Positions 2,081 to 32,147 of a DNA stretch of 64,000 nt are shown one piece after another. Under the pieces are notes generated by a model, which made no database searches, had not been told where the DNA came from, and was given only the letters and a program-made list of their open reading frames with translations. Position numbers and translations under genes: made by a program. Origin of the DNA: Minisyncoccota bacterium (lineage in GTDB: Bacteria; Patescibacteriota; Minisyncoccia; Phycocordibacterales; Phycocordibacteraceae); NCBI GenBank assembly GCA_018062765.1, contig JAGORR010000001.1, positions 217,249 through 281,248 on the forward strand. Reading direction: 5' to 3'. Within the stretch, counting starts at the first letter, position 1; every line of letters starts with the position of its first letter.

Positions 2081-3907
2081 CTACTCGACCGTCACAGACT
2101 TTGCGAGGTTCCTGGGCTGGTCTATCGGGAGGTCACGAGCGTGCGCCACATGGTAGGCAAAAAGCTGCACAGGTATCGCCGTCAGGATGGGAAGAAACGC
2201 CTCATGCGTCTTCGGTACTGCGATGATATCGTCAGCAAGTTCTCTGAGATCCTCCTCCTTGCCCTCCGTGGTAATCGCAAGCACCTTACCGCCGCGCGCC
2301 TTTATTTCTTGAATGTTTGATTTCGATTTTTCATACAAAGAATCATCGGGCGCAAGCACAACCGAGAGGAAGGACGGCTCGATAAGCGCAATCGGTCCGT
2401 GTTTCATCTCGCCTGAGGCATACCCCTCCGCATGTATGTAGGAAATTTCCTTGAGCTTTATCGCGCCTTCAAGTGCGATAGGGAATTGGTACTTGCGCCC
2501 TAGGTAGAATGCGTTTTCCGCGTCCTTATATTTTTGCGAAAGCTTCCTGATTTCCTCGCTCTTCTTAAGGATAGAACGCGCAAGGTCTGGAAGTTTTGCG
2601 AGTTCCTCGATACGTTCTTGTCCTTCTCCGACCGACATTCCGCGTCCGCGCGCAAATAGTATGGAAATCATCGCGAATACCGCCATCTGCGAAATCATCG
2701 CTTTTGTCGAAGCGACGCTAATCTCCGGCCCCGCGTGGTTGTAGACGCCCGCATCCGTCTCACGTGCGATAGAAGATCCGACGACGTTGACGACGCCGAG
2801 CGTGGTAACACCATTGCGTTTTGCTTCGCGGATTGCCTCTATGGTGTCGAGCGTTTCTCCTGACTGCGAAACCGCGATAAGTATCGTGTCTGCCGGGTTC
2901 ATTGTGTTCTTGCGGTATCGCAACTCCGACCCAAGCTCAACCTCGGTGGGGATTCCCGCGAACTCCTCGAGCATAAGTTCGCCCACGCGCCCGGCGTAGG
3001 ACGCGCTTCCGCAGCCGGTAATGATGACGCGAGACTTCTCCTGAAGTGTGGGCAGGATGTCGATGAGTCCACCGAGTCGTACCGAGCCCTCCGCCATGAG
3101 GAGTCGACCACGAAGCGTGTTCTCAAGGGCCTCAGGTATCTCCATCATTTCTTTCAGCATGAAATGCTCGTACCCCTTCTTTTGGGCCGCCTCGAGGTCC
3201 CACTCTAGGGTCTCGACCGTGGCACTTCGTGATTCACCCGCCAAGGTGCGGATGTCGTAGCCGTTTTCAGTTAGTACGGCGATATCTCCATCGTCGAGGT
3301 ATACAACGTCTCGCGTATGTCGCAAGACAGGCGTCGCGTCAGACGCAATGTAATACTCACCATCTCCTATCCCGAGCATTACAGGGCTTGAAAATCGCGC
3401 GGCAACGAGTTTCCCTGGCTCACGCACGCTTGCCGCTACGAGTCCGTATGTGCCGCGCACGCGACTAAGTGCTTTAGCGACTGCGTCCTCAAGCAACACT
3501 CCCTCGCCATACTCCGCGTAGATAAGATTCGCGAGTACTTCGGTATCGGTGTCCGAGTGAAAAGCGACGCCGGAGGACGCAAGCTCAGCCTTTAGGTCTG
3601 CGTAATTCTCGATAATGCCATTGTGAACGATCGAGACCGTTCCCGAGGCGTCCGTATGAGGATGCGCGTTCTTCTCGACTGGCGGGCCGTGTGTGGCCCA
3701 GCGTGTATGAGCGATTCCGAGAGTACCTGAGAATCCTTCCGGCACCGCCTCACGCAAGGTTGCCACTTTTCCGGCGCGTCGTACTACACCTTTACCTTCG
3801 ACATAAATACCGGCGGAATCATACCCACGGTATTCGAGCGCCGAGAGCCCATCAAGAAGGAAGGGAGTTGCGTTCCGCGAACCTACGTATCCGACGATGC
3901 CACACAT
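2081..3907 (-). CDS. glmS: glutamine--fructose-6-phosphate aminotransferase
   Basis: N-terminal MCGIVGY Ntn-amidotransferase domain and two SIS domains; 608 aa. Confidence 0.95.
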   Translation of the reverse strand: MCGIVGYVGSRNATPFLLDGLSALEYRGYDSAGIYVEGKGVVRRAGKVATLREAVPEGFSGTLGIAHTRWATHGPPVEKNAHPHTDASGTVSIVHNGIIENYADLKAELASSGVAFHSDTDTEVLANLIYAEYGEGVLLEDAVAKALSRVRGTYGLVAASVREPGKLVAARFSSPVMLGIGDGEYYIASDATPVLRHTRDVVYLDDGDIAVLTENGYDIRTLAGESRSATVETLEWDLEAAQKKGYEHFMLKEMMEIPEALENTLRGRLLMAEGSVRLGGLIDILPTLQEKSRVIITGCGSASYAGRVGELMLEEFAGIPTEVELGSELRYRKNTMNPADTILIAVSQSGETLDTIEAIREAKRNGVTTLGVVNVVGSSIARETDAGVYNHAGPEISVASTKAMISQMAVFAMISILFARGRGMSVGEGQERIEELAKLPDLARSILKKSEEIRKLSQKYKDAENAFYLGRKYQFPIALEGAIKLKEISYIHAEGYASGEMKHGPIALIEPSFLSVVLAPDDSLYEKSKSNIQEIKARGGKVLAITTEGKEEDLRELADDIIAVPKTHEAFLPILTAIPVQLFAYHVAHARDLPIDQPRNLAKSVTVE

Positions 3908-4064: not shown

Positions 4065-4318
4065 GCCGATGTAGCTCAGCTGGTAGAGCACGTCCATGGT
4101 GGGTCGCAAAGCCCTGCCCACGTTTTCAGTAATGAGAGCGTGAATCCCGAATTACGGTTAATAGCCCCACAGGCCAAGACCGTGGCGCATAGCGCCCGAA
4201 CGACTGACAAGGGTATCCGTTCCGGATAAAGATACAGTCTAGCCCTCTTTCGCGTGGCAGTTAGGAAAAGAGGTGTAAGCGAAGGACGGGGTCGCCGGTT
4301 CAAGCCCGGCCATCGGCT
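4065..4318 (+). tRNA. tRNA gene interrupted in the anticodon loop by an approximately 180-nt insertion (candidate group I intron); anticodon not confidently assignable (possibly Arg)
   Basis: 5' half GCCGATG-TA-GCTCAGCTGGTAGAGC-A-CGTCC-AT at 4065-4097. 3' half CGAA-GGACG-GGGTC-GCCGG-TTCAAGC-CCGGC-CATCGGC-T ending at 4318. Acceptor (GCCGATG/CATCGGC), D, anticodon (CGTCC/GGACG) and T stems are all perfectly paired. About 181 nt are inserted after U33/N34. Confidence 0.6.
4098..4279 (+). ncRNA. group I-like intron within the tRNA anticodon loop
   Basis: Contains GCCAAGACCGTGG (4171-4183), GAACGACTGACAAGGGTATCC (R-like, 4197-4217) and AAAGATACAGTCTAGCC (S-like, 4228-4245), with a P7-like GACUG/CAGUC pairing. 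These resemble the conserved cores of Tetrahymena, Anabaena tRNA-Leu and Azoarcus tRNA-Ile introns. Exact splice sites are uncertain. Confidence 0.45.
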
Positions 4319-4324
4319 CAGATA

Positions 4325-4526
4325 CACGAGAAACGCGCCCCTGCGGGGCGCGTTTCTCGTGTATCTGAGACCCTATTAAACTCCGTTAGAACCCATTTTG
4401 CAAAGGAGCCCTGATTACTCGCGCCTCGCGGACTCGGCGCTCGCCCCGACCCCTGTCCGCACTAAAATCCTTTTCTTTTTTCGCGGGGGGGGGGGAATCC
4501 AAAAATCCGGGCTCGGAGCGGCAGGG
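4325..4526. repeat. left copy of a ~200-bp near-identical inverted repeat (IR-L)
   Basis: Reverse complement of 9030-9227. Contains a 37-nt perfect palindrome cacgagaaacgcgcccctgcggggcgcgtttctcgtg at its outer end and a G11 homopolymer (G8 in the partner). Confidence 0.85.
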
Positions 4527-4544
4527 AGAGGGTCATAATCCTTA

Positions 4545-4575
4545 TTGACGCAATATACCCCTTAGGGGTATATTG
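4545..4575 (+). promoter_or_regulatory. sigma70-like promoter overlapped by a CsoR-type operator palindrome; the transcript is probably leaderless
   Basis: TTGACG (4545-4550), 18-nt spacer, TATATT (4569-4574). Operator CAATATACCCC-tta-GGGGTATATTG (4551-4575) matches the ATACCC..GGGTAT CsoR consensus. csoR ATG at 4581. Confidence 0.55.
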
Positions 4576-4580
4576 CGTTT

Positions 4581-4847
4581 ATGCAACAAGCTCACAAGAA
4601 AAGTTTGCTCTCCCGGTTGCGCCGGATCGAAGGCCAAGTTCGGGGCCTTATCCGACTGGTTGAGAAGGATACCTACTGCATAGATGTTATTACCCAAACG
4701 TCGGCAATAAAAAGTGCTCTCTCAAGCGTCGAAGATCTCCTTCTAGAAAATCACTTGGAAACGTGCGCATCGAATCAGATCAAGTCGGGGAATATAAAAA
4801 AGGCGAAGCAGGAGATTCTTGCCGTGTATCGGCTTAAGCGCAAATAG
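4581..4847 (+). CDS. csoR: CsoR/RcnR-family copper-sensing transcriptional repressor
   Basis: 88 aa. RIEGQVRGL, the conserved Cys in YCIDV, and the H..E..C metal ligands (LENHLETC). Confidence 0.8.
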
Positions 4848-4848
4848 C

Positions 4849-7143
4849 ATGAACGATCGTCGAACGTATCGAGTAAAGGGCATGCATTGCGCTTCGTGCG
4901 CAAGCATTATTGAGCGCGCGGTCAAGAAAGTCGATGGAGTAGAGCACGTTGAAGTGAACTACGGCACCGAGACAGCAAAAATCGCCTTTGATGAGAGTAA
5001 AACCAACCCTCACCACCTTTCCGAGCAACTCAAGCCACTTGGCTATTCGTTTGTGGTTCCTACGGCAGAGTCGATGGGAATGTCAGCCGAAGAGCATGCC
5101 GCGCATACGGGACTAGGGCAGTCAAAAGCCGAGAAGCTTGCCGAAATAGAAGAGATGCGATGGAGAGTATTTTCGGTGCTTCCGTTAGCTGCGTTTAGTA
5201 TTTTTGTAATGGGCTGGGAGATGTTCGCTCAGTTGGGCACTCTAAGCCCAATACCGGAAATCTGGAATGAATTTTTCCATCACCTTCTGCCGATCTTTGC
5301 CACGTACACGTTCATTGTCGTAGGAAAGCCGTACGCGCTTGGTTTCTACCGCTTTGTCCGCTACGGCAAGGCGAATATGGATACGCTGATCGGGATAGGC
5401 ACTTCCGTAGCCTTCGTGTACAGCTTCATTCTTTCCGCTTTCGAAGAGCCGCTTCGCCCGTTTCTTAATGTTGATCAGACCTATTACGACGTAACTATTG
5501 TCGTGATCGCGTTTATCGCGCTTGGCAAATACCTCGAAGCTCGTTCGAAGCTCAAGACTGGAGATGCAATCGAGAAACTACTCGGTCTTCAAGCAAAAAC
5601 CGCCTTGGTAGTGAAAAACGGAAAAGAGGTGGAGATTCCAGTAGATCAGGTAGCCCATGGCGATCTCATCGTAGTAAAACCGGGCGGCAAGATACCTGTT
5701 GATGGCGTACTCACCGAAGGCAGTTCGTATGTAGACGAGTCGATGGTCACGGGTGAATCTATGGCAGTCGAAAAGAACGTCGGCGATACGGTCGTGGCAG
5801 GAACCATAAACACCAAGGGACATTTCGTATTTAAGGCTACGAAGGTGGGTTCCGAGACCTTGCTTGCACATATCATCAAGATGGTTGGGGAAGCGCAGGG
5901 AAGTAAGGCGCCCATTCAGGGGCTTGCGGACAAGATTTCAAGCGTGTTCGTCCCCATCGTTCTTGTCTTTTCGATTCTCGTATTTGCCGCATGGCTTCTG
6001 TTTGGCATACCGACACTCGGTCTTGCGCAGGCGCTCACGCTCGGCCTAACCTCGTTTGTGGGTATTTTAGTCATTGCGTGTCCGTGTGCTCTTGGTCTTG
6101 CAACGCCGATTGCCGTAATCGTCGGTGTCGGCAAAGGAGCGCAGGAGGGGATTCTCATCAAGGATGCCGCCACTCTCCAAAAGCTCCGAAGCGTCGATAC
6201 GGTAGTGATTGATAAGACCGGCACCATAACGAAAGGCACGCCGGAAGTGATAGAAGTCGTTGTGCAGGGAAATCGCGGCAAGGACGAATTGATTTCCATC
6301 TTGGCCTCGCTTGAAAAGAAGTCCGAACACCCGCTTGCAACTGCAATCCTTGCATACGCTGAACGTAGAAATATATCGCTCAAATCAGTAGAGCATTTCG
6401 AAATGCTTTCCGGAAGAGGTGTGCGAGGAACTATAGAGGGGGTGGAATACCTCGCGGGTAACACAACGCTCATGCAAGAATACTCCGTTGCATTTGATAA
6501 CTCTTCTCTTAAAGAACGAACCGAGAAAGGAAGGACGCCGGTATTTCTTGCTACGAAGAAAAGTGTTGTTGGGATAGTATTTGTGGCCGATGCGGTAAAA
6601 CCTGAAGCCGTCACTGCCATTCAAAAACTTCATAAGATGGGAATCAAAACCGTTATGCTTACCGGCGATAATCGCCAGACAGCGGAATCTATCGCGAAAG
6701 AAGTCGGTATAGACGACGTGGTGGCACAGATGTTGCCTGACGAGAAGCTCAACAAGATCAAAGAACTTCAAGCCGAGGGGCGTGTGGTCGCAATGGCGGG
6801 GGATGGCGTGAATGATGCTCCTGCACTTGCGCAGGCTGATGTGGGTATTGCCATGGGCACCGGAACCGATGTTGCCATAGAAACCGCAGGCATTACGCTT
6901 CTTGGCGGGGATATTGGGAAGGTCGTAAAAGCGATACGGCTTTCGCGCTTTACCATGACCGGCATTAAGCAAAATCTGTTCTGGGCATTCATCTACAATC
7001 TCGTTGGGATACCGATTGCAGCAGGAATTCTTTATCCGTTTACGGGATGGCTTTTGTCGCCCGTTGTCGCAGGTCTTGCAATGGCGTTTTCAAGCGTGTC
7101 GGTGGTACTCAATTCACTGCGACTAAAAGCCGTTAAACTATAA
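4849..7143 (+). CDS. copA: copper-translocating P1B-type ATPase with an N-terminal HMA domain
   Basis: GMHCASCA (CxxC HMA), TGES, CPC ([10 protein letters not shown]), [18 protein letters not shown] at 4849 directly after the csoR stop. Confidence 0.95.
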
Positions 7144-7150
7144 CTAACTC

Positions 7151-8170
7151 ATGAAATCCTACACTTTCCACGTACACGGGATGCACTGCAATTCTTGCGT
7201 GGTGCTTACCGAGGGTGAACTCAAAGACCATGCGTCTGTAGAGCATGCAGTTGCTGACCTAAAGACGTGCTGCGTCGAAGTTCGAGGTGATTTCGGAGAC
7301 AAAAGCCACACGGAAGTCGCGCAGGAACTCTCGCCGCTTCTTGAAAAGCACGGGTACAAACTCTCCACGGAGAAAGAGCAGAAGGGAGTGAAGTGGTCTG
7401 ATTTTGGTATCGCAGTCCCGGCGACGCTCGGGTTCATGGCATTTTTCGTCATATTGCAAAAGCTCGGGCTGGTGAATCTCGTTTCAAGCGGCGAAGTGAA
7501 TTACGGAACAGCATTCCTCATAGGACTTATTGCTTCCGTCTCGACCTGTATGGCGGTTGTGGGGTCGCTTGTCCTTTCGGTTTCGGCGAACTATGCGAAA
7601 GAAGGGGATAAGGTGCGTCCGCAAGTCCTGTTTCATATCGGACGCCTTGCCGCGTTCTTCCTGCTTGGCGGCATTATCGGCGCGGTCGGTTCAGCGTTTC
7701 AGTTGGGGACAGTCGGCATATTTGTGATGACCTTTGTCGTTGCGCTTGTGATGCTCATACTCGGCATCAACCTGCTTGATATCTTTCCGTGGGCGAAGAA
7801 ACTTCAACCGACGTTTCCGAAGTTCATTTCAAATCACCTACTTGAGATTAAAAAAGTAAACCACACGCTCACACCAGTGTTGCTCGGTATCGTCACATTC
7901 GTTCTCCCATGCGGATTCACGCAGTCAATGCAACTCTACTCACTTACGACGGGAAGCTTCTGGGGAGGGGCAACGACGATGTTCGTATTTGCGCTTGGTA
8001 CTTTGCCAGTACTCGCGCTTTTGAGTTTCGGTTCACTAGGAATTCGCGATAAAGCGACATCAAGCGTGTTCTTCAAGACGGCGGGACTGGTCGTGATCAT
8101 ATTCGCCCTCATGAATCTGGTAAATAGCTTCGTGATAATTGGGTTCATACCACCTATCTTTAATTTCTAG
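7151..8170 (+). CDS. HMA metal-binding domain fused to a DsbD_2/CcdA-like two-cysteine transmembrane domain
   Basis: N-terminal GMHCNSC HMA fold. Six or more TM helices, with conserved Cys in the TM segments (ASVSTCMAVVG and VLPCGFTQ). Confidence 0.55.
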   Translation: MKSYTFHVHGMHCNSCVVLTEGELKDHASVEHAVADLKTCCVEVRGDFGDKSHTEVAQELSPLLEKHGYKLSTEKEQKGVKWSDFGIAVPATLGFMAFFVILQKLGLVNLVSSGEVNYGTAFLIGLIASVSTCMAVVGSLVLSVSANYAKEGDKVRPQVLFHIGRLAAFFLLGGIIGAVGSAFQLGTVGIFVMTFVVALVMLILGINLLDIFPWAKKLQPTFPKFISNHLLEIKKVNHTLTPVLLGIVTFVLPCGFTQSMQLYSLTTGSFWGGATTMFVFALGTLPVLALLSFGSLGIRDKATSSVFFKTAGLVVIIFALMNLVNSFVIIGFIPPIFNF

Positions 8171-8174
8171 TACC

Positions 8175-8570
8175 ATGGATACGAGCATGAAAGCGACTAT
8201 TGCGGCAGTTATTTTCGGAGGGCTTTTGATCGGTGGAGCATTGCTTCTCTCGGGTAGTTCCGCTACTGACGCTGTCGAGGGAGTCAATGTGAGCGTAGTT
8301 GATGGGAAACAAATAATCGAAATTGGTGCCAAGGGAGGTTATTCTCCGAGAGAGACTATTGCAAAAGCAGACATCCCAACAGTCCTGCGCGTTGCAACGA
8401 AAGGAACGTTCGATTGTTCGTCGGCACTTACTATCCCGGCGATTGGATATCAAAATAGTCTGCCTCCCTCCGGTACTACCGACATAGAAATTCCTCCACA
8501 AAAACCCGGTACGACTCTCCAGGGACTCTGTGCGATGGGAATGTACAACTTTTCCATTAAATTTAACTAG
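8175..8570 (+). CDS. membrane-anchored cupredoxin-like protein (putative Cu-binding), hypothetical
   Basis: N-terminal TM anchor, beta-rich domain, Cys/Met cluster (FDCSS, GLCAMGMY). Position in the cop operon. Homology is tentative. Confidence 0.35.
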   Translation: MDTSMKATIAAVIFGGLLIGGALLLSGSSATDAVEGVNVSVVDGKQIIEIGAKGGYSPRETIAKADIPTVLRVATKGTFDCSSALTIPAIGYQNSLPPSGTTDIEIPPQKPGTTLQGLCAMGMYNFSIKFN

Positions 8571-8635
8571 GGAGCCCCGCCGCATCCTCGCGGCGGGATA
8601 TGCGCGCACGGGTGGGGGCAAGCATGTATGAATTT

Positions 8636-8936
8636 GCCTCGGGGCTGTTTCCGCTATGAGCGTCCATGGCTAAAGGACGAAGGCCGACGTTCGCCGGAGG
8701 CACTCTCTTCCGAAGCGGAAGCGACACAACGAACACCCGTATGCAATGGAGGATGGGGGTTGTGCGAGGCCGGACTCCGAAGGAACGAGGAGGAGGCCGA
8801 AGCTGGGGGAAGGATTCCTTCCTTCCCCCAAACAAGAGCCGCCCCGAAGCTCCCGCCCCGCAGGGCGGAGAGCAAGGAAAACGGCGGCACAGAGGAATCT
8901 AGGCCTTCGTAGCCATAGCGGAAACAGCCCCGAGGC
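8636..8936. repeat. 301-bp GC-rich element bounded by perfect 23-bp inverted repeats (MITE-like element or highly structured RNA)
   Basis: gcctcggggctgtttccgctatg (8636-8658) is the exact reverse complement of 8914-8936. The interior carries multiple local hairpins (cttccgaagcggaag, gggggaagg...ccttccccc). ORFs occur in all six frames, indicating no coding capacity. Confidence 0.5.
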
Positions 8937-9029
8937 GGATGCCGAGGGGTGAATCTCTTTAGTCAGGGGCGCTTCAAAGCGGATAAAAACAGACACGAGA
9001 CCACTGGGTATTTTGGGCTACCCCCGAGC

Positions 9030-9227
9030 CCTGCCGCTCCGAGCCCGGATTTTTGGATTCCCCCCCCGCGAAAAAAGAAAAGGATTTTAGTGCGGACAGG
9101 GGTCGGGGCGAGCGCCGAGTCCGCGAGGCGCGAGTAATCAGGGCTCCTTTGCAAAATGGGTTCTAACGGAGTTTAATAGGGTCTCAGATACACGAGAAAC
9201 GCGCCCCGCAGGGGCGCGTTTCTCGTG
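9030..9227. repeat. right copy of the ~200-bp inverted repeat (IR-R)
   Basis: Reverse complement of 4325-4526; differs essentially only in poly-G/C tract length. Confidence 0.85.
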
Positions 9228-9241
9228 GTAGATTCTAAGTA

Positions 9242-10240
9242 ATGATGCGTCACTTTCTTGTGCCGACACTGGTGTCGGCGCTCATACTTATAGCGCTTGG
9301 CGTATGGCTTGGGCCCGCGGCGTTCGTCACTGCCGTTCTCCTTGTCATTCTTGAGGTCACGCTTTCCTTTGATAATGCGGTCGTAAACGCCCGCATCCTT
9401 AAGGGTATGACGCCGGTGTGGCAGCGACGCTTCCTGACCTGGGGCATGCTCTTTGCTGTTTTTGGTACACGTCTCGTCCTTCCGATACTCATCGTCGCGG
9501 CTTCTGCATGGATGTCACCTTTGGCGGTTGCCTACATGGCCGGATTCGATCCTGAGGCGTATGCGCATCTTCTAGAGGGAACGAAGCACGCGATATACAG
9601 CTTCGGTGCCGCGTTCCTCCTTATGGTGTCCTTGAAGTATTTCTTCGACCAGGAGAAGGAGCTCCATTGGATAGGAATCATCGAGAAGCATTTGTCCCGC
9701 TGGGGTCGCATCGAGGCTTTGGAAATCGGATTTGGCCTTCTCATTCTCCTCGGGTTCTCATTCCTGGTCCCGTCTGCGGAGCAGGGAATCGTGCTCTCCT
9801 CAGGCATTATCGGCATCGCGCTCTTTATCCTCATGCAGGGTATCGCAAGCTCGTTCGCGGTAGAGACGGACACCATCGCGACGACGGCCGCGGGCGCCGG
9901 CCTCGCGCTCTTCATTTACCTCAACATTCTCGACTCCGCATTCTCCCTTGATAGCGTGGTGGGTGCCTTCGCACTCTCAACCGCCATACCCGTTATCGTC
10001 GCAGGCCTCGGTATTGGCGCCTGGTTCGTGCGTTCTCTCACCATCTACTTCGTGCAGAAGGGAACACTCGACACCCTGCTCTACCTTGAGCACGGCGCGC
10101 ACTGGGCCATCCTTGGTCTCGCCCTCTCGATGTACGCCGGGCTCTTGTTCCATGTACCGGAGACGATTACCGGCACCATAGGACTAGCATTTGTCGTCGC
10201 GGCCTATTATTCGTCGCTTCGCGTGAAGAAACATGCTTGA
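9242..10240 (+). CDS. TerC/DUF475-family integral membrane protein
   Basis: EVTLSFDNAVVNA motif; multi-pass membrane protein; 332 aa. Confidence 0.65.
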   Translation: MMRHFLVPTLVSALILIALGVWLGPAAFVTAVLLVILEVTLSFDNAVVNARILKGMTPVWQRRFLTWGMLFAVFGTRLVLPILIVAASAWMSPLAVAYMAGFDPEAYAHLLEGTKHAIYSFGAAFLLMVSLKYFFDQEKELHWIGIIEKHLSRWGRIEALEIGFGLLILLGFSFLVPSAEQGIVLSSGIIGIALFILMQGIASSFAVETDTIATTAAGAGLALFIYLNILDSAFSLDSVVGAFALSTAIPVIVAGLGIGAWFVRSLTIYFVQKGTLDTLLYLEHGAHWAILGLALSMYAGLLFHVPETITGTIGLAFVVAAYYSSLRVKKHA

Positions 10241-11094: not shown

Positions 11095-11976
11095 ATGACT
11101 GATGATGCGAGGGAGAAGCGTTTAGAGGAACTCGAGCTTTTGATGGGCACGCCCGATTTCTGGGCCAACAAGGACGAGGCGCAGGCGCGCGTTGCCGAAT
11201 ACCAGGCGCTTAAAGAAGGAGGGTCAGGTGACCCGACGGATGCGGGCGGAGCGACCATCACGATACTTGCCGGCGCCGGAGGGGACGATGCAGAAGATTT
11301 TGCGGCGATGCTTCTCCGGATGTACGAAGGCTACGCGACCAAGAAAGGTTGGAGGTGGCGAGTGCTCGATGATAACGAGAACGATCACGGCGGATACCGC
11401 AACGTTGTTGCGGAAGTCGCGGGGGCGGGGGCGTATGGGCGCGTGAAGCACGAGGCAGGAGTCCATCGTCTGGTACGTATCTCGCCTTTTAACGCGCAGG
11501 ATAAACGGCAGACCTCATTCGCGATGGTCGAGGTCCATCCAGCTCTCGGAAAGCATATGAAGGTGGAACTCAAGCCGGACGACCTGGAGATTACGTTCGC
11601 GAAGGCGGGTGGAGCCGGCGGCCAGAACGTCAACAAGCGCGAGACGGCGGTGCGCATCATTCATAAACCCACTGGGCTTTCCGTGCACGTATCGTCGGAG
11701 CGGAGCCAGCAAGCGAACCGAGAGAAAGGCATGGAGCTTCTTTCTGCAAAGATTCACATGCGAGAAGCGGAGGTGAGGGAGGCTGAGCGCGCAGGGCGTT
11801 CGATATCTGCGACAACCGCCAACGAATGGGGAAGCCAGATACGCTCCTATGTGCTCCATCCCTACAAGATGGTGAAGGATCATCGCACCGAGCATGAGTC
11901 ATCTAACCCCGACAAGGTGCTTGCAGGCGATATCGACGATTTTATAGACGCAGCAGCCGCGAAAACCGTTGCATAA
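11095..11976 (+). CDS. prfB: peptide chain release factor 2 (no programmed frameshift; short N-terminus)
   Basis: SPF tripeptide (RISPFNA), GGQ motif ([11 protein letters not shown]), WGSQIRSYV. No in-frame TGA or CUU-UGA-C frameshift site upstream. Confidence 0.85.
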
Positions 11977-26404: not shown

Positions 26405-27091
26405 GTGATTATTCAATCAATGGCCCTGGGTAATATAACGAGTCAAGTAATCTCAAAACAACGTGTTTCCGACCATGGTGAGGTACTAACGGCTGAGCGA
26501 GAGGTAAACGCCATGCTCGACATGGTGCGCCATGAGACCGAACGCATTGACTCCCGTTTCCTCGAGCCAGCTTGCGGCACAGGCAATTTCCTAGCTCCAG
26601 TGTACGAAAAAAAGCTTGCCGTCATTAAAAAGCGCTACGGTAAAAGCCAGCTAGAGTTTGAACGCTACGCCGTTACAGGCACAGGCTCCATCTATGGAGT
26701 GGACATTCTTGAGGACAACATAAAACTCTGCCGCAAGCGCCTGTTCGACATCTTTAACGAGCTCTACACGGCGCTCTACAAGAAAAGAAGCAAGGATGCT
26801 GTCCGCAGTGCAGTCCGCTTTGTTCTCAACAGAAACATTTTGTGGGGTGATGCACTTTCTCTTAAAACGGTGTCAAAACAGCCGATGCCCATCGTGTTCT
26901 CCGAGTGGTCTATGGTACGCGGTAGCATGATGAAAAGGCGCGACTTCTCGTTTGAGGAGCTTATGCCCGACAGCGCGGCAAAAGTGAGCCTGTTCAAGCA
27001 AGCAGAAATATCCGATCTTGGGACACCAGCGTTCATACCGACCCCTGTAAAAGAGTACCCACTTACTCATTTCCTTTCACTACACGTATGA
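26405..27091 (+). CDS. Eco57I/gamma-class N6-adenine DNA methyltransferase homolog lacking catalytic motif IV (SAM-binding pseudo-methyltransferase?)
   Basis: Motif X-like HGEVLTAEREV and a canonical motif I FLEPACGTGNFL. The expected (D/N)PP(Y/F) position reads NRNILWGD. 228 aa; may start at the internal ATG at 26420. Confidence 0.55.
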   Translation: MIIQSMALGNITSQVISKQRVSDHGEVLTAEREVNAMLDMVRHETERIDSRFLEPACGTGNFLAPVYEKKLAVIKKRYGKSQLEFERYAVTGTGSIYGVDILEDNIKLCRKRLFDIFNELYTALYKKRSKDAVRSAVRFVLNRNILWGDALSLKTVSKQPMPIVFSEWSMVRGSMMKRRDFSFEELMPDSAAKVSLFKQAEISDLGTPAFIPTPVKEYPLTHFLSLHV

Positions 27092-28578
27092 AAGTTCCGA
27101 CGAGCTACAACCCCGATGTTCTTACGTGTCTTGCCAACCTTAGCAACGACGAGGTGTTCACACCGCCAGCGTTGGTGAACCAAATACTCGACACCTTGCC
27201 GTCCGAAATTTGGCGAGACAAAACTGCCACTTTTCTTGATCCAGTCTCTAAGACAGGTGTTTTTCTGCGCGAAATAGTCCGCCGCCTCAATGATGGTCTG
27301 GTCAAAGAAATCCCCGACGCACAAGCACGGCTCGATCATATTTACACCAAGCAGGTGTTCGGCATCGCCATCACCGAGCTCACGGCACTGCTCTCGCGAC
27401 GCTCGCTTTACTGCTCGAAAGACGCAAGCGGCAAGTATTCAGTAAGTGAGGCGTTCAAAAGTGCTGACGGCAATGTACGCTTCGAGCGCACCGAGCATAG
27501 CTGGAAAGACGGTAAATGTGCCTTCTGTGGTGCAGGCCAGGCCGAGTATGATCGCGCCGAGGCGCTTGAGACCCATGCTTACCAGTTTATTCACACCGAC
27601 AACCCTAGTACACTGTTTAATAATATGAAGTTTGATGTAATTGTCGGCAATCCACCATATCAGTTGAGCGATGCTGGCGATAGCACGGGCGCATCGCCGA
27701 TATATCAACTCTTTGTTGAGCAAGCAAAGAAACTTCAACCACGCTTTTTGACAATGATTATTCCGTCGCGTTGGTTTGCAGGAGGGAAAGGGCTTGAGGG
27801 TTTTCGTGAAGATATGTTGAACGACGGACGAATCTCACATTTGGTGGACCATCCAATCGCGTCAGATGTTTTCCCCGGTATCAAATTGAATGGTGGTGCT
27901 TGCTATTTCCTATGGAATCGCGAATATCAGGGAGAATGCGAAGTAACCATAAAGATGAGCGGCATGGAGGATACAACAAAACGGCGACTCAATCAGTTCG
28001 ATACATTTGTTCGTTTCAACAAGGCAATCTCAATTTTGGATAAGGTGCAGTCGAAAAAGTATTCATCGTTGAGTGAGCTGGTATCACGACAAAAGCCGTT
28101 TGGACTCCGTACTTTTGAGCGTCCAACAGGAAAGGGTACTGTAAAGCTATACGCGAACAAAACCATTGGAAAGATTGAAAAGTCTGCAATAACCGTCGGG
28201 TTCGATATGTTGGATTCGTGGAAAGTATTTATTTCGATGGGCTATGGTGAAGGTGGCGAGGCGCGCGAATATCCGCGCATGATTTTGGGTAAACCCATCG
28301 TTGCTGCCCCGGGAATTGCATGTACAGAGACATATATTGTTGTTGGGAAATATAAGACAGAAAAAGAGGCAGAAAATCTTGCTAAATATTTACAAACGAA
28401 GTTCTTGCGATTCTTGGTCGCTCTTCGTAAAAACACGCAACACGTTACTAGAGATCGGTTTTTATTTGTGCCCGATTTGCCAATGAAAGAAGAATGGACA
28501 GACGAAAAGCTTAACAAGCTTTTCCGTCTGACAAAAGAGGAGATCGAATTCATTGACATGATCGTTCGTCCCATATAG
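27088..28578 (+). CDS. N6-adenine DNA methyltransferase, gamma class (Eco57I family)
   Basis: Motif X DEVFTPPALV, motif I region LDPVSKTGVFL (non-canonical), motif IV VIVGNPPYQ; 496 aa; start overlaps the upstream stop (ATGA). Confidence 0.8.
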   Translation: MKVPTSYNPDVLTCLANLSNDEVFTPPALVNQILDTLPSEIWRDKTATFLDPVSKTGVFLREIVRRLNDGLVKEIPDAQARLDHIYTKQVFGIAITELTALLSRRSLYCSKDASGKYSVSEAFKSADGNVRFERTEHSWKDGKCAFCGAGQAEYDRAEALETHAYQFIHTDNPSTLFNNMKFDVIVGNPPYQLSDAGDSTGASPIYQLFVEQAKKLQPRFLTMIIPSRWFAGGKGLEGFREDMLNDGRISHLVDHPIASDVFPGIKLNGGACYFLWNREYQGECEVTIKMSGMEDTTKRRLNQFDTFVRFNKAISILDKVQSKKYSSLSELVSRQKPFGLRTFERPTGKGTVKLYANKTIGKIEKSAITVGFDMLDSWKVFISMGYGEGGEAREYPRMILGKPIVAAPGIACTETYIVVGKYKTEKEAENLAKYLQTKFLRFLVALRKNTQHVTRDRFLFVPDLPMKEEWTDEKLNKLFRLTKEEIEFIDMIVRPI

Positions 28579-28580
28579 CT

Positions 28581-31094
28581 ATGGCCGATTTTTTTCCGCC
28601 ACGGCCGGAGGCAAAGCCTACTATCTACGCCTACAAGCTCAAAGGTGTGGAAACGCATGCTCATCTCCTCAAGGTGGGCTACACGACGCGCGATGCGCAA
28701 AGCCGCATTGCCGAACAGCTCACCACCGCGCGTTTGCAATACGAAATTGTTTTTGAAGAACCGGCTATGCGTGCCGATGGTTCGACATTTACAGATACCG
28801 ACGTGCATCGCCACTTGCGCGGAAAGCGCATCACGAATCCGGAAGGAGAGTGGTTTGAGTGTGGAGTGAAAGACGTGCGAGCAGCGTACGTTGCCATACG
28901 AGAGGGTGTGTTCAACGAAGAAAACCGCACACAAACATTCGGAATGCGCCCAGAGCAAGCCGATGCTGTGGTAAAAACCGCCGCGTATTTTACCGAGGCG
29001 CATGCTGACGGCAAGCAAACACCGCATTTTTTATGGAATGCCAAAATGCGCTTCGGGAAAACATTCACCACGTACCAGCTCGCCAAAAAGATGGGATGGA
29101 GGAGGGTGTTAGTGCTCACCTTTAAGCCCGCCGTGCACAATTCCTGGCACGAGGATTTGATGAACCATGTAGATTTTGAGGGATGGCAGTTTGTCTCGCG
29201 ACGGGGGAATACGCTCAATCATGCTGACATTGATGAAAAGAAACCATTTGTCGTATTTGGTTCGTTCCAGGATTTTCTCGGAAAAAACAGCGCAGGCGGG
29301 ATAAAAGCAAAGAATGAGTGGGTACACGAGACAACATGGGATGCTGTCGTCTTTGATGAATACCACTATGGTGCGTGGCGCGAGAGCGCGAAGGATTTGT
29401 TTGTCGGTGAGGAAAAAGACGTACGCAAGGACGAAGAGGGTGAGGCGTTGGAGTACTTTGACGAGCGCGCAGTGCCGATAAAGACCGGCGCGTATCTCTA
29501 CCTTTCGGGTACCCCATTTCGGGCTATTGCGAGCGGAGAATTTATCGAAGAGCAGATTTTCAACTGGACGTACAGTGACGAACAGCGGGCAAAAGAAGAG
29601 TGGGACAGTGCGAAGGGACCCAACCCATATGCGTCGTTGCCACGGATGGTGATGCTCACCTATCAGTTACCTGATGCTATACGTGAAGTGGCGATGGGTG
29701 GGGAGTTCAATCAGTTTGATTTGAGCCAGTTTTTTGCTGCAGAAGGAAAGGGCAAGAGCGCGAAATTTTTGTATAAAGACGAAGTGCAAAAGTGGCTGGA
29801 TTTGATTCGCGGTGCGTTTGCTGAAACTACCGTAGACAATTTGAAGCTGGGAGCGAAGAAGCCTGCGTTGCCGTTTTCTGACACGCGGCTTTTGAATGTG
29901 CTATCGCACACGTTTTGGTTTTTGCCGAGTGTAGCGGCCTGTCATGCTATGGCGAATTTGCTCAAGCAACGACAGAACAAGTTTTTTAACGAGTACGAGG
30001 TGATTGTGGCAGCGGGTACGGCGGCGGGAATTGGCGTGGCGGCGCTTGAGCCTGTGCTGAGGAAGATGGGCGAGCCCTTGAAGACGCGCACAATTACGCT
30101 TTCGTGCGGCAAACTGACGACGGGTGTATCCGTGAAGCCATGGACAGGTATTTTTATGCTGCGCAATGTAGCGAGCCCCGAGACATATTTTCAGGCGGCT
30201 TTTCGCGTGCAGACACCGTGGACTGTGCCGAATCCGGAGGGCAACGCGCCAAATCGTGAAGAAATCATCAAGCAGGAATGCTATGTTTTCGATTTTGCTC
30301 CGGATCGCGCTTTGCGACAGATTGCCGAGTATAGTTCTAGACTCAATTTGGATGATTCGGTCAGTCCCGAGAAAAAGGTGGAGGAGTTTATTCACTTCTT
30401 GCCGGTCTTGGCCTATGACGGAAGCGCGATGAATCAGATAGACGCGGCGGGAATTTTGGATATGGCGATGAGCGGGACCACTGCCACGTTGCTTGCGCGG
30501 CGTTGGGAGAGTGCGCTTTTGGTGAATGTCGACAACTATACTCTGGCGCGCTTGATGAACAGTGATGAAGCGATGCAGGCATTGATGAGTATTGAAGGCT
30601 TTCGTGCTCTGAATCAAGATATTGAGACTATCATCAACAAGTCCGGTGTGGTGGAGAAACTGAAAAAAGAAGCGAACGATCGGACGTTGACGAAGAAAGA
30701 AACAGAGTCATTGAGCGACGCCGAAAAAGAATTGAAGGGCAAGCGTAAGCAGGTGCAGGAAAAGCTCATCAAATTTGCAACTCGCATTCCGGTGTTTATG
30801 TATCTCACCGACTACCGCGAGCATACTTTGAAGGACGTAATCAATGAGCTTGAGCCGGACTTGTTTAAACGCGTTACCGGTCTTACTAAAAAGGACTTCG
30901 AGCTCTTGGTGAGCTTAGGTGTATTCAACGATTCGTTGATGAACGACGCGGTTTACAAATTCCGTCGATATGAGGATGCGAGTTTGGCGTACACCGGCAT
31001 AAACAGGCACGAAGGGGAGAATGTTGGTCTTTTTAGCACAGTCCTTTCTGTAAAAGAATACGACCAAACATTCATAAATACTCCAGAAGAGTAG
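28581..31094 (+). CDS. GIY-YIG (T5orf172-like) nuclease domain fused to an SF2 (SNF2/ResIII-like) helicase
   Basis: N-terminus TIYAYKLKGVETHAHLLKVGYTTRD...EGEWFE. Helicase motifs: Q-like TFGMRPEQADAV, I NAKMRFGKTFT, II VVFDEYHYG, III LSGTPF, V LTTGVSV, VI QAAFRVQTP. 837 aa. Confidence 0.6.
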   Translation: MADFFPPRPEAKPTIYAYKLKGVETHAHLLKVGYTTRDAQSRIAEQLTTARLQYEIVFEEPAMRADGSTFTDTDVHRHLRGKRITNPEGEWFECGVKDVRAAYVAIREGVFNEENRTQTFGMRPEQADAVVKTAAYFTEAHADGKQTPHFLWNAKMRFGKTFTTYQLAKKMGWRRVLVLTFKPAVHNSWHEDLMNHVDFEGWQFVSRRGNTLNHADIDEKKPFVVFGSFQDFLGKNSAGGIKAKNEWVHETTWDAVVFDEYHYGAWRESAKDLFVGEEKDVRKDEEGEALEYFDERAVPIKTGAYLYLSGTPFRAIASGEFIEEQIFNWTYSDEQRAKEEWDSAKGPNPYASLPRMVMLTYQLPDAIREVAMGGEFNQFDLSQFFAAEGKGKSAKFLYKDEVQKWLDLIRGAFAETTVDNLKLGAKKPALPFSDTRLLNVLSHTFWFLPSVAACHAMANLLKQRQNKFFNEYEVIVAAGTAAGIGVAALEPVLRKMGEPLKTRTITLSCGKLTTGVSVKPWTGIFMLRNVASPETYFQAAFRVQTPWTVPNPEGNAPNREEIIKQECYVFDFAPDRALRQIAEYSSRLNLDDSVSPEKKVEEFIHFLPVLAYDGSAMNQIDAAGILDMAMSGTTATLLARRWESALLVNVDNYTLARLMNSDEAMQALMSIEGFRALNQDIETIINKSGVVEKLKKEANDRTLTKKETESLSDAEKELKGKRKQVQEKLIKFATRIPVFMYLTDYREHTLKDVINELEPDLFKRVTGLTKKDFELLVSLGVFNDSLMNDAVYKFRRYEDASLAYTGINRHEGENVGLFSTVLSVKEYDQTFINTPEE

Positions 31095-31103
31095 TAAAAA
31101 TCT

Positions 31104-31991
31104 ATGGCACTTTTTCAATCAAAAAACGATAAGGTTACACAGGTCGGTATAGACCTGTCGCAATTTAGAAACGAGGCTGCCCTACGAGATTTTTTTGCTG
31201 GAAATCTTGAGGAACTTTTAGGACTTCGATTTCTTGCGAATGAATACAGAACCACAGATGGGCGTATAGACACCTTGGCAATTGATGAGGTGGGTACTCC
31301 GGTAATAATTGAGTACAAATGGGATGAGAACGATGCTATTCTCCCGCAAGGCTTGTCCTACATGGCTTGGCTAAAAGACAATAAACGTTTATACGATTTG
31401 CTCGTATCAGATAGACTAGGGAAAGATATCAAAGTGTTTTGGGACATTCCGCGTCTCATTCTTGTAGCACAGCGCTTTGATCGTCGCACGCTCGCTGCCG
31501 CCGGAGAAGCGAAAAATAGTGTTGAACTCATTAAATATACACCTTACGACTCGGGCATATTACATCTTGAAACAGTTTACGGTTCTGAAAAAGTAAGAAC
31601 AGTTTCAGAAACAGTAGCTAAATTGTCATCAAAAGGTGTCAAATATTCTCTCGACCATCATTTAAATAGGGTAAACGAGGATGTTAAGCAGATGTTCTAC
31701 GCTCTTCAAGCAGAAATTCTTAAATGGACAAACGTAGACGAGAGGATCGATCAAAAAGTAGGGATAACGTATCGTACGACCAAGAGTTTCGTCCGTTTCG
31801 AGTTCGGTAAGAGCTATGTGAATGTTTTGGTACGAGACCCACGCTACGATCACAAAATTGACCCGAAAGGTCTATTGAAGGATGTGTCCTCGTTCGGCTG
31901 GGGTTATAAGGGGGTTGCTAAATTGAAATCGAAAGAGGATGTACAGGATGTTCTTGAGTTAGTGCGGGCATCGTACGAATCTACCCTATAA
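31104..31991 (+). CDS. PD-(D/E)xK (NucS/DUF91-like) nuclease domain plus a DUF5655-like C-terminal domain protein
   Basis: GRIDTLAIDEVGTPVIIEYKWDE fits a D...(E/D)xK core. C-terminal region resembles DUF5655. 295 aa. Confidence 0.45.
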   Translation: MALFQSKNDKVTQVGIDLSQFRNEAALRDFFAGNLEELLGLRFLANEYRTTDGRIDTLAIDEVGTPVIIEYKWDENDAILPQGLSYMAWLKDNKRLYDLLVSDRLGKDIKVFWDIPRLILVAQRFDRRTLAAAGEAKNSVELIKYTPYDSGILHLETVYGSEKVRTVSETVAKLSSKGVKYSLDHHLNRVNEDVKQMFYALQAEILKWTNVDERIDQKVGITYRTTKSFVRFEFGKSYVNVLVRDPRYDHKIDPKGLLKDVSSFGWGYKGVAKLKSKEDVQDVLELVRASYESTL

Positions 31992-32147
31992 CGAGAGGCA
32001 ATTTATATTGCATGTTGCTAAACCTAGTTCTAAGCAGGTGCTAGTTTCAATCAATAGATAAGCGATATTTTTGGCTATTTACATGACAAATGGCTGTGAG
32101 ACAATTATTGGGAATCGGCGTAAGAAACCGCTCCTCACATCGTCTTC

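Follow-up and report, generated by a model that had tools for sequence, protein, structure and literature searches.

The question raised by this locus is what kind of element is represented by a 301-nt, GC-rich segment enclosed by a perfect inverted repeat in the genome of a Minisyncoccota bacterium (assembly GCA_018062765.1, contig JAGORR010000001.1, forward strand, positions 217 249 to 281 248; this whole stretch of 64 000 nt is referred to here as the window). The two 23-nt arms of the repeat, at 8636-8658 (GCCTCGGGGCTGTTTCCGCTATG) and 8914-8936, are 100 % complementary and 255 nt apart, and the arm 23-mer was found only these two times in the 64-kb window, with 0 occurrences expected from 100 shuffles. 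A preliminary description had favoured a miniature inverted-repeat transposable element (MITE) over a rod-like structured RNA. Our study indicates that the segment is very probably one domain of an uncatalogued family of structured RNAs of approximately 620 nt, the copy here lying on the plus strand (about 8569-9188).

Several of the properties first attributed to the segment were reproduced. The GC content, which had been put at about 65 %, was computed as 63.1 % for the 301 nt, and open reading frames of 68-108 aa were present in all six frames. The segment also folds unusually well: the plus strand gave a folding energy of -169.4 kcal/mol (z = -10.0 compared to shuffled sequences), with z = -8.2 for the minus strand. 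The non-coding character was supported among 45 distinct homologues, in which 99 % of indels were not a multiple of three and substitutions were spread evenly over the codon positions (832/739/770), and protein coding was rejected on this basis. UUCG tetraloops on the minus strand were also rejected: the motif CUUCGG is present four times, at roughly 30 times the rate of the window, but the stems are out of register (1-2 bp).

The 301-nt extent of the segment, however, did not hold. Homology with other genomes covers window positions ~8567-9185 and is uninterrupted over both repeat boundaries in all loci, with a best identity of 93.6 % over 624 nt (to L014; L-numbers are labels of individual homologous loci). 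As had been reported, no target-site duplication is visible, since the flanks AATTT and GGATG share no direct repeat; these flanks are themselves conserved parts of the larger unit. The arms were placed correctly, but the helix that they form runs outward and the conserved unit occupies ~8569-9188. Alignments were made of 14, 45 (alignment A1, distinct full-length copies) and 80 copies. The copy in the window matched the nhmmer profile over 8586-9188 with 603 bits, and, because this score is among the best, it is considered to be intact.

Covariation carries the structural interpretation. The RNAalifold consensus of A1 comprises 165 pairs, with standard pairs in 92.4 % of cells. Counted irrespective of shared ancestry, 49 pairs change on both sides, compared to 29.2 +/- 2.7 in shuffled alignments (0/500 reach this number) and 19-27 with the partners slid, while 249 cells change on both sides, compared to 69 shuffled and 43-60 slid. 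The best-supported helices lie in and around the 301-nt element. In helix 8679-8685/8902-8908, G-C is exchanged with A-U in 18 sequences and C-G with G-C in 10, and compensatory changes are also present in 8768-8778/8789-8798, in 8804-8814/8820-8830 and in a three-part hairpin at 8836-8890. Of the alternative named in the preliminary description, the structured RNA is thus supported, but not the rod, as the segment is a multi-branched domain of a larger RNA.

The unit is modelled as two domains joined by a linker. Domain A (8569-8960, plus strand) was delimited from the profile and alignments and runs from an invariant AGGGAG, which overlaps the TAG stop codon of the upstream cupredoxin gene, to a block at ~8954-8958 that pairs back to the 5' end, the 5' GGGAG being matched by CUCCC, CUCCU or CUCUU. 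It contains a 5' hairpin at 8577-8599 (CCCCGCCGC-AUCCUC-GCGGCGGG), whose stem varies in sequence and length among the aligned genomes, and then the closing helix, of which the 5' strand (8630-8661) holds the left arm and the 3' strand (8912-8942) the right arm. Inside this helix, the 301-nt element (8636-8936) forms the multi-helix core of the domain, and invariant single-stranded blocks of the core include GGGGGUUGUGCGA and UCCGAAGGAACGAGGA. The linker (8961-9021) carries the conserved motifs AAAACAGAC and GAGACC, with an extra hairpin at this point in many other genomes. Domain B (9022-9188) is a long hairpin with the base GAGCCCUGCCGC/GCGGACAGGGCUC, an inner hairpin GCGCC-GAGUCCGCGAG-GGCGC and a terminal hairpin whose UUUAAUAGGG loop is conserved, and its stems covary (for example, CGAUUCCGC/GCGGAAUCG in L105). 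Directly 3' of domain B, a perfect 17-bp hairpin (9191-9227), which belongs to a repeat shared with 4325-4361, probably represents the end of the transcript.

Within this model, the 23-bp repeat is the middle of a closing helix of ~29 bp around a multi-helix junction. On the plus strand the helix extends outward by four pairs, U-A, A-U and two U.G (8632-8635 with 8937-8940), and by a further pair, G8630-C8942, beyond one mismatch. The inner 14 bp show compensatory changes, with U-A and G-C exchanged at 8657/8915 in 11 sequences, G-C and A-U at 8647/8925 and U-A and C-G at 8646/8926. Subfamilies carry the arm variants GGGGCUG/CAGCCCC, GGGCUG/CAGCCC, GGACA/UGUCC and GGGCA/UGCCC, and in a divergent subfamily GCCUCGGACAUUUCCGCUAG and CUAGCGGAAAUGUCCGAGGC form a perfect 20-bp helix with a different and shorter middle. 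The aligned arms indicate that the closing helix is kept by compensatory mutation.

The outer 9 nt of the 3' arm (8928-8936, CCCCGAGGC) have a second possible partner, the block GCCGAGGGG (8941-8949) that begins 5 nt downstream, with which they can form an alternative hairpin with a GGAU loop and tandem G.A in the stem. For this comparison, arm variants were extracted by anchors, as MAFFT had misplaced one arm of the divergent subfamily in the 80-sequence alignment. The alternative hairpin was kept in 39/39 distinct variants, whereas the pairing of the two arms has a mismatch or bulge in approximately 10, and run lengths agreed between the 3' arm and the downstream block in 21/22 variants, compared to 14/22 for the two arms. 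In L021 the 3' arm carries a C>A change, and it is the downstream block, not the 5' arm, that shows the matching G>U; in L104 and L105 an extra pair has been added on both sides of the alternative hairpin's loop. Both of these mutually exclusive pairings therefore appear to be under selection, and the alternative one is conserved at least as well as that of the arms. The closing helix may therefore be a two-state element that works through competing pairings, although the competing parts differ in estimated stability (~-27 kcal/mol for the closing helix vs ~-14 kcal/mol for the alternative hairpin).

The plus strand was assigned as the transcribed strand with moderate confidence from the sequence comparison. 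With the plus-strand model, the ratio of G.U to A.C was 394:95, compared to 186:133 with the minus-strand model, and the conserved U.G extensions of the closing helix are formed by the plus strand only. In three loci (L014, L015 and L122), unrelated terminators consisting of a stem and a U-tract follow domain B in plus orientation. Same-strand tRNA genes were located 14-70 nt from the unit in at least nine loci, among them tRNA-Arg 14-17 nt upstream (L009, L064 and L125) and tRNA-Thr, Gly or Lys 20-40 nt downstream (L006, L008, L017 and L095). Between the start of the unit and what precedes it there are 2-6 nt where this is the stop codon of a gene, and 14-17 nt where it is tRNA-Arg. As this leaves no room for a promoter of its own, read-through from the upstream operon or tRNA is the probable source of the RNA, which would then be released by processing and stabilized by its closed, highly paired architecture.

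The rival that survives best, although we regard it as unlikely, is a cis-regulatory RNA, namely a very large riboswitch-like or T-box-like sensor in which domain A would sense and the targets would lie on the 3' side (domain B, followed by tRNA-Thr/prfB or, in the window, a DUF475/TerC gene) or in the stability of the upstream mRNA. A 3' strand with a mutually exclusive partner in every distinct variant has the layout of a P1 helix with an expression platform, and the RNA is apparently co-transcribed with its neighbouring genes. However, these upstream and downstream genes vary widely and include no consistently regulated gene, of the competing structures the closing helix has by far the greater stability, the 5' strand of this helix is transcribed first, and another 250 nt of conserved structure follow the switch.

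Variation within the unit was of two kinds. Three loci are deletion variants, L055 without profile positions 246-356, and L017 and L095 without 391-465, so that domain A is fused to domain B; these will be useful to define dispensable parts. In six others (L011, L012, L041, L059, L116 and L118), an insertion stands in place of the GGGGGAAGG...CCUUCCCCC hairpin (equivalent to 8804-8830) and has ~27-bp terminal inverted repeats (GATGCGTACCCCATTTAGTGGACACTTT...). Because every contig breaks within this insertion, it is probably multi-copy, and would be an insertion sequence element or intron-like element inside the RNA gene.

The unit was identified at ~135 loci from Patescibacteria genomes and metagenomes. 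Among species-representative genomes, the exact arm 20-mer was found at 18 loci, all in metagenome-assembled genomes (MAGs) of Patescibacteria, labelled Kaiserbacteria, Paceibacteria, Parcubacteria, Taylorbacteria and, in automatic submissions, 'Saccharibacteria'. An invariant internal two-block motif matched 119 metagenome stretches with no viral contig among them, and no match was obtained in the phage and plasmid records searched; a phage or plasmid origin was rejected on this basis. On these matches, and as far as searched, the family is restricted to Patescibacteria and is typical of Kaiserbacteria and Paceibacteria-type genomes. The profile built from the first alignment detected a full or contig-truncated copy in nearly every locus, one per locus, and the arm 20-mer search returned a single locus each in contigs of 554 kb and 437 kb. 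The placement is the same in several genomes, with tRNA-Arg upstream and tRNA-Thr, prfB, ftsE and ftsX downstream. Numerous contigs terminate within the element, which fits invariant blocks of up to ~40-50 nt common to co-occurring strains, together with the inverted repeat. One Kaiserbacteria MAG (MFMU01 contigs, L005, L007 and L010) contains the RNA in two different copies, of which one is divided between two contigs. These copies are roughly 80 % alike with compensatory differences, and are either true paralogues or derived from two organisms in one bin.

The surroundings of the unit are organized around a second copy of its 3' part. In the window, an inverted copy of domain B and its hairpin, lacking domain A and here termed B', lies on the minus strand at 4325-4547. 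By blastn, 9029-9227 and 4526-4325 are 98.5 % identical over 202 nt, including the terminal hairpin, while B' proper corresponds to profile positions 466-632 matching 4547-4364 in nhmmer. Such an inverted B-only copy was present 2-12 kb upstream of the full unit in ~40 loci. Within a genome, B' and B share 97-100 % identity and also have lineage-specific insertions in common, whereas B differs by 4-25 % between genomes; B and B' thus evolve in concert. Downstream of the full unit, prfB-ftsE-ftsX was found in at least eight loci, and never after B', which places the full unit at a conserved chromosomal position in several lineages.

B' forms the left border of a cargo of protein-coding genes, which in the window comprises csoR, copA, a DsbD_2/HMA membrane protein and a cupredoxin-like protein (4581-8570, plus strand; Pfam). 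Across genomes, cargo genes are mostly on the strand of the RNA, with 20-60 nt between B' and the first of them and 2-6 nt between the last and domain A, but their content differs and includes DNA methyltransferases, ResIII helicase, T5orf172 and metal-resistance genes. The element had been described as lying inside the cop cassette; it does adjoin the cop genes, but what stays constant is the RNA, and the cop genes represent one among many exchangeable cargoes. A link specific to copper resistance was rejected, as cop genes occur in only 3/~40 cargoes, and so was a role of B and B' as processing stems around rRNA or tRNA, the cargo being protein-coding.

Just inside B', a promoter-like TTGACG-18-TATATT (4545-4577, plus strand) overlaps a 13-bp inverted repeat (CGCAATATACCCC, 3-nt spacer) at 4549-4577. 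This repeat lies over the promoter-like site of csoR and is likely to be a CsoR operator; owing to its symmetry, the opposite strand would have a -10-like box as well, directed towards B'. In other loci B' has a -10-like box at its inner edge, and the first ATG follows 6-25 nt further on. Because of this position, the cargo would have its own promoter and B' would lie outside its mRNA. An RNA duplex between an antisense B' leader and the B of one transcript is disfavoured, as the cargo promoter lies inside B'.

Furthermore, large serine recombinases (Resolvase, Recombinase and Zn-ribbon domains) are encoded just outside B or B' in many loci, on a side that varies across genomes and gives mirror-image arrangements; Pfam searches found no recombinase near the element in the window. 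Where the recombinase gene is intact, its end overlaps the 3' end of a convergent tRNA gene, and remnants of the last 50-60 recombinase codons converge on the outer end of B' in 9/20 loci or of B in 5/45. In L094, the 157 nt after tRNA-Thr(GGU) and those after B' share 99 % identity, and in both cases the similarity starts exactly where the RNA ends. There (3745-3901 and ~7082-7238), and also in L114, L021, L035 and L132, inverted repeats of ~157 bp bound a large serine recombinase gene and one or two other genes; these repeats contain the recombinase's own 3' end, and the element is situated exactly between the 3' end of the tRNA and that of B or B'. Such an arrangement resembles either an invertible segment or a recombinase element whose terminal inverted repeats are long. 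The 3' end of B may thus serve serine-recombinase elements as a landing site in the way that tRNA 3' ends do. Because these elements treat B as the 3' end of a stable RNA, they lend independent support to the RNA interpretation.

The same observations can be read at the level of DNA, with the conserved region and B' as recombination or boundary sites of a gene-cassette locus, such as targets of the nearby large serine recombinases or the long inverted repeats of an island that is invertible or mobile. The hairpins would then act in single-stranded DNA or as cruciforms. The B/B' inverted repeats of 165-250 bp around variable cargo, their concerted evolution, the recombinase genes or remnants just outside them on either side, and the ability of domain B to fold about equally well on both strands would all fit such a role. 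Domain A, however, has G.U pairs conserved for one strand and invariant loops typical of RNA tertiary structure, the window has no recombinase near the element, and the terminators and tRNA genes on the same strand fit a transcript. Moreover, no flipping was seen, prfB being on the A-B side in 8/8 informative loci. A primarily DNA-level role of the B/B' part is judged to be distinctly unlikely.

A divergent housekeeping RNA that standard models have missed is very improbable. Conservation near the level of rRNA, the single-copy state, the adjoining tRNA genes, and integrative elements that abut the 3' end as they do for tRNA and transfer-messenger RNA (tmRNA) genes are in its favour. However, the Rfam search proposed in the preliminary description gave no match at the gathering score in the window or the 18 related loci; Rfam 15 annotated one tRNA-Gln in the former and tRNAs only in the latter. 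Relaxed searches of two divergent copies, with E <= 10 for the region 8400-9400 and E <= 1 for the other copy, yielded only chance microRNA-like hairpins, and ARAGORN detected no tmRNA in the window or 50 loci. Inspection of the alignments revealed no P4-type motif of RNase P, as already stated, and no tag reading frame or T-arm/acceptor; 6S RNA is likewise without an Rfam match. The resemblance to domain IV of the signal recognition particle (SRP) RNA was not upheld, as Rfam gave no match even at E <= 10 and covariation pairs the segment differently. Two local likenesses were also discarded. The minus strand has an RNase P-like string at 9030-9070, but other genomes have not conserved it. Many copies of B end in a ...CCA-like sequence that recalls a tRNA; this is, however, the 3' strand of a terminal hairpin that covaries, and it matched no tRNA model. 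No description of the family was found in the literature searched, including the main catalogue of candidate bacterial RNAs.

The MITE favoured at first, a non-autonomous DNA transposon with 23-bp ends bound by transposase in trans, is hardly credible, since, despite perfect inverted repeats at a MITE-typical distance and a neighbourhood rich in mobile DNA, there is no target-site duplication, the copy is single in the window and one per locus (also in the 554-kb and 437-kb contigs), homology is unbroken across its ends, none of the ~135 loci lacks exactly the repeat-bounded piece (the deletions in L055, L017 and L095 end elsewhere), arms and interior change in a compensatory way unlike transposase-binding ends, and the two ~80 % alike copies of the Kaiserbacteria MAG do not resemble products of recent transposition.

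The structured RNA, which we prefer over all of these, also has to be weighed against several points. Transcription, strand and ends are inferred from sequence only, and an RNA gene without space for its own promoter is unusual. The pairs common to both strand models provide a weak test of strand (72 vs 56), and domain B alone, folding about equally on both strands, is ambiguous. The covariation statistics ignore shared ancestry and many of the sequences are close relatives; the sources are all metagenome-assembled, with many contigs breaking inside the element. Finally, the inverted B' and its concerted evolution are unexplained by a trans-acting RNA gene.

Patescibacteria have tiny genomes with very little non-coding DNA. 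Given this economy, the invariant blocks of up to ~40-50 nt and the dozens of covarying pairs, the 620-nt unit is almost certainly important. Its most likely role would be that of a stable folded RNA or RNA-protein particle, of the kind of the large 'ornate' bacterial RNAs, with B as the 3' module of the transcript. A more specific proposal, which we offer tentatively and consider unlikely to be right, is a lineage-specific RNA tied to a 'cassette bay', in which A-B and B' delimit a slot for restriction-modification, defence and metal-resistance operons. The twins B and B' would be kept identical by gene conversion, their 3' ends would act as landing sites for serine recombinases, and the two-state helix would let the RNA sense or report on the upstream transcript. 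If true, this would represent a new RNA-based organization or control of horizontally acquired genes in minimal-genome bacteria; alternatively, the family could be a new self-assembling ornate RNA. Large complex bacterial RNAs are rare, and the known ones are ribozymes, RNA-protein machines or self-assembling cages. The family adds a candidate from a major uncultivated bacterial branch, together with an alignment, a structure model and a putative two-state helix, and its architecture connects RNA biology with the acquisition of defence and resistance genes. In addition, ultra-conserved blocks break metagenome assemblies, and recognition of the element should help to close genomes of the candidate phyla radiation (CPR).

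Other features of the loci were recorded alongside. In many loci a pair of paralogous winged-helix proteins is encoded upstream of domain A (for example, L005 992-2004 and L024 752-1677), one of ~98 aa with an N-terminal hydrophobic segment and one of ~170-230 aa with a proline-rich N-terminus, each with a winged helix at its C-terminus (weak HTH_24 match). In many loci 3-6 nt separate the end of the second gene from the RNA, and 29/98 informative loci have the pair no more than 300 nt upstream; as it is absent from the window and the closest relatives, it was rejected as an obligatory partner. On the far side of B', the window encodes a tRNA-Thr(GGU) (4065-4318, plus strand) with a 181-nt intron (4101-4281) right after the anticodon. 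This gene was missed by ARAGORN and Rfam on the genomic sequence and was found by ARAGORN in spliced form, and the intron gave no Rfam group I match at E <= 1. Patescibacteria tRNA genes that carry group I introns have been described (PMC13011429). The tRNA-Thr(GGU) and B' converge on one common perfect 25-bp hairpin (4318-4368), with nothing inserted between them. This shared hairpin, like its 17-bp version after B (within 9183-9227), is probably a bidirectional terminator, and it accounts for the start of the Logan contigs L002 and L003, which lies 44 nt ahead of the DUF475 gene. Further downstream, the prfB open reading frame (11095-11976, 293 aa) lacks an N-terminal part, its PCRF match starting at profile position 95, which fits the programmed +1 frameshift that is usual for release factor 2. 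At ~27000-32000, GC content falls from ~56 % to 42-50 % with a strongly positive GC skew, and this may be another horizontally acquired block.

Among known systems, inverted repeats are also present in retron non-coding RNAs, but here Pfam shows no reverse transcriptase beside the element, its neighbours being a cupredoxin and a DUF475/TerC gene. With respect to integrons, no integrase was called beside the locus in the window, and the cargo consists of operons whose own promoter lies at the B' junction, a repeated attC-like element being absent. MITEs of the Correia and RUP type are similar in size and have terminal inverted repeats, but here target duplication, dispersed copies and empty sites are lacking and the repeats covary as an RNA helix. 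Invertons share the inverted repeats flanking a gene block and, in some genomes, the adjoining serine recombinase; they differ in having repeats of 10-30 bp, compared to 165-250 bp, only one orientation of the present segment to prfB is seen (8/8), and flipping would not switch expression because the promoter is inside it. A riboswitch would resemble the unit in its P1 helix and platform, as the 3' strand of the closing helix has a conserved downstream alternative partner, but the sensor here would be ~250 nt with no evident ligand or regulated gene, the element follows genes, and its states differ greatly in stability. The tRNA and tmRNA genes that anchor genomic islands are similar in that a stable-RNA gene lies beside a variable island with recombinases at its 3' end and a partial 3' copy at the far end. 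In the present case the copy is inverted, located on the 5' side of the RNA gene and 97-100 % identical, and the recombinases are large serine recombinases; because it is inverted, and not direct, B' is no by-product of simple integration. The ornate RNAs GOLLD, ROOL, OLE and raiA differ from the unit in several respects, as the unit has no match in Rfam 15, a Patescibacteria host, no occurrence in viral contigs and an inverted 3'-domain duplicate around a cassette, which to our knowledge has not been described for any of them. Like the unit, GOLLD and ROOL are found near tRNA genes and mobile DNA. Like these four RNAs, however, the unit is longer than 500 nt, contains many covarying helices and invariant junctions, and was found by comparative genomics.

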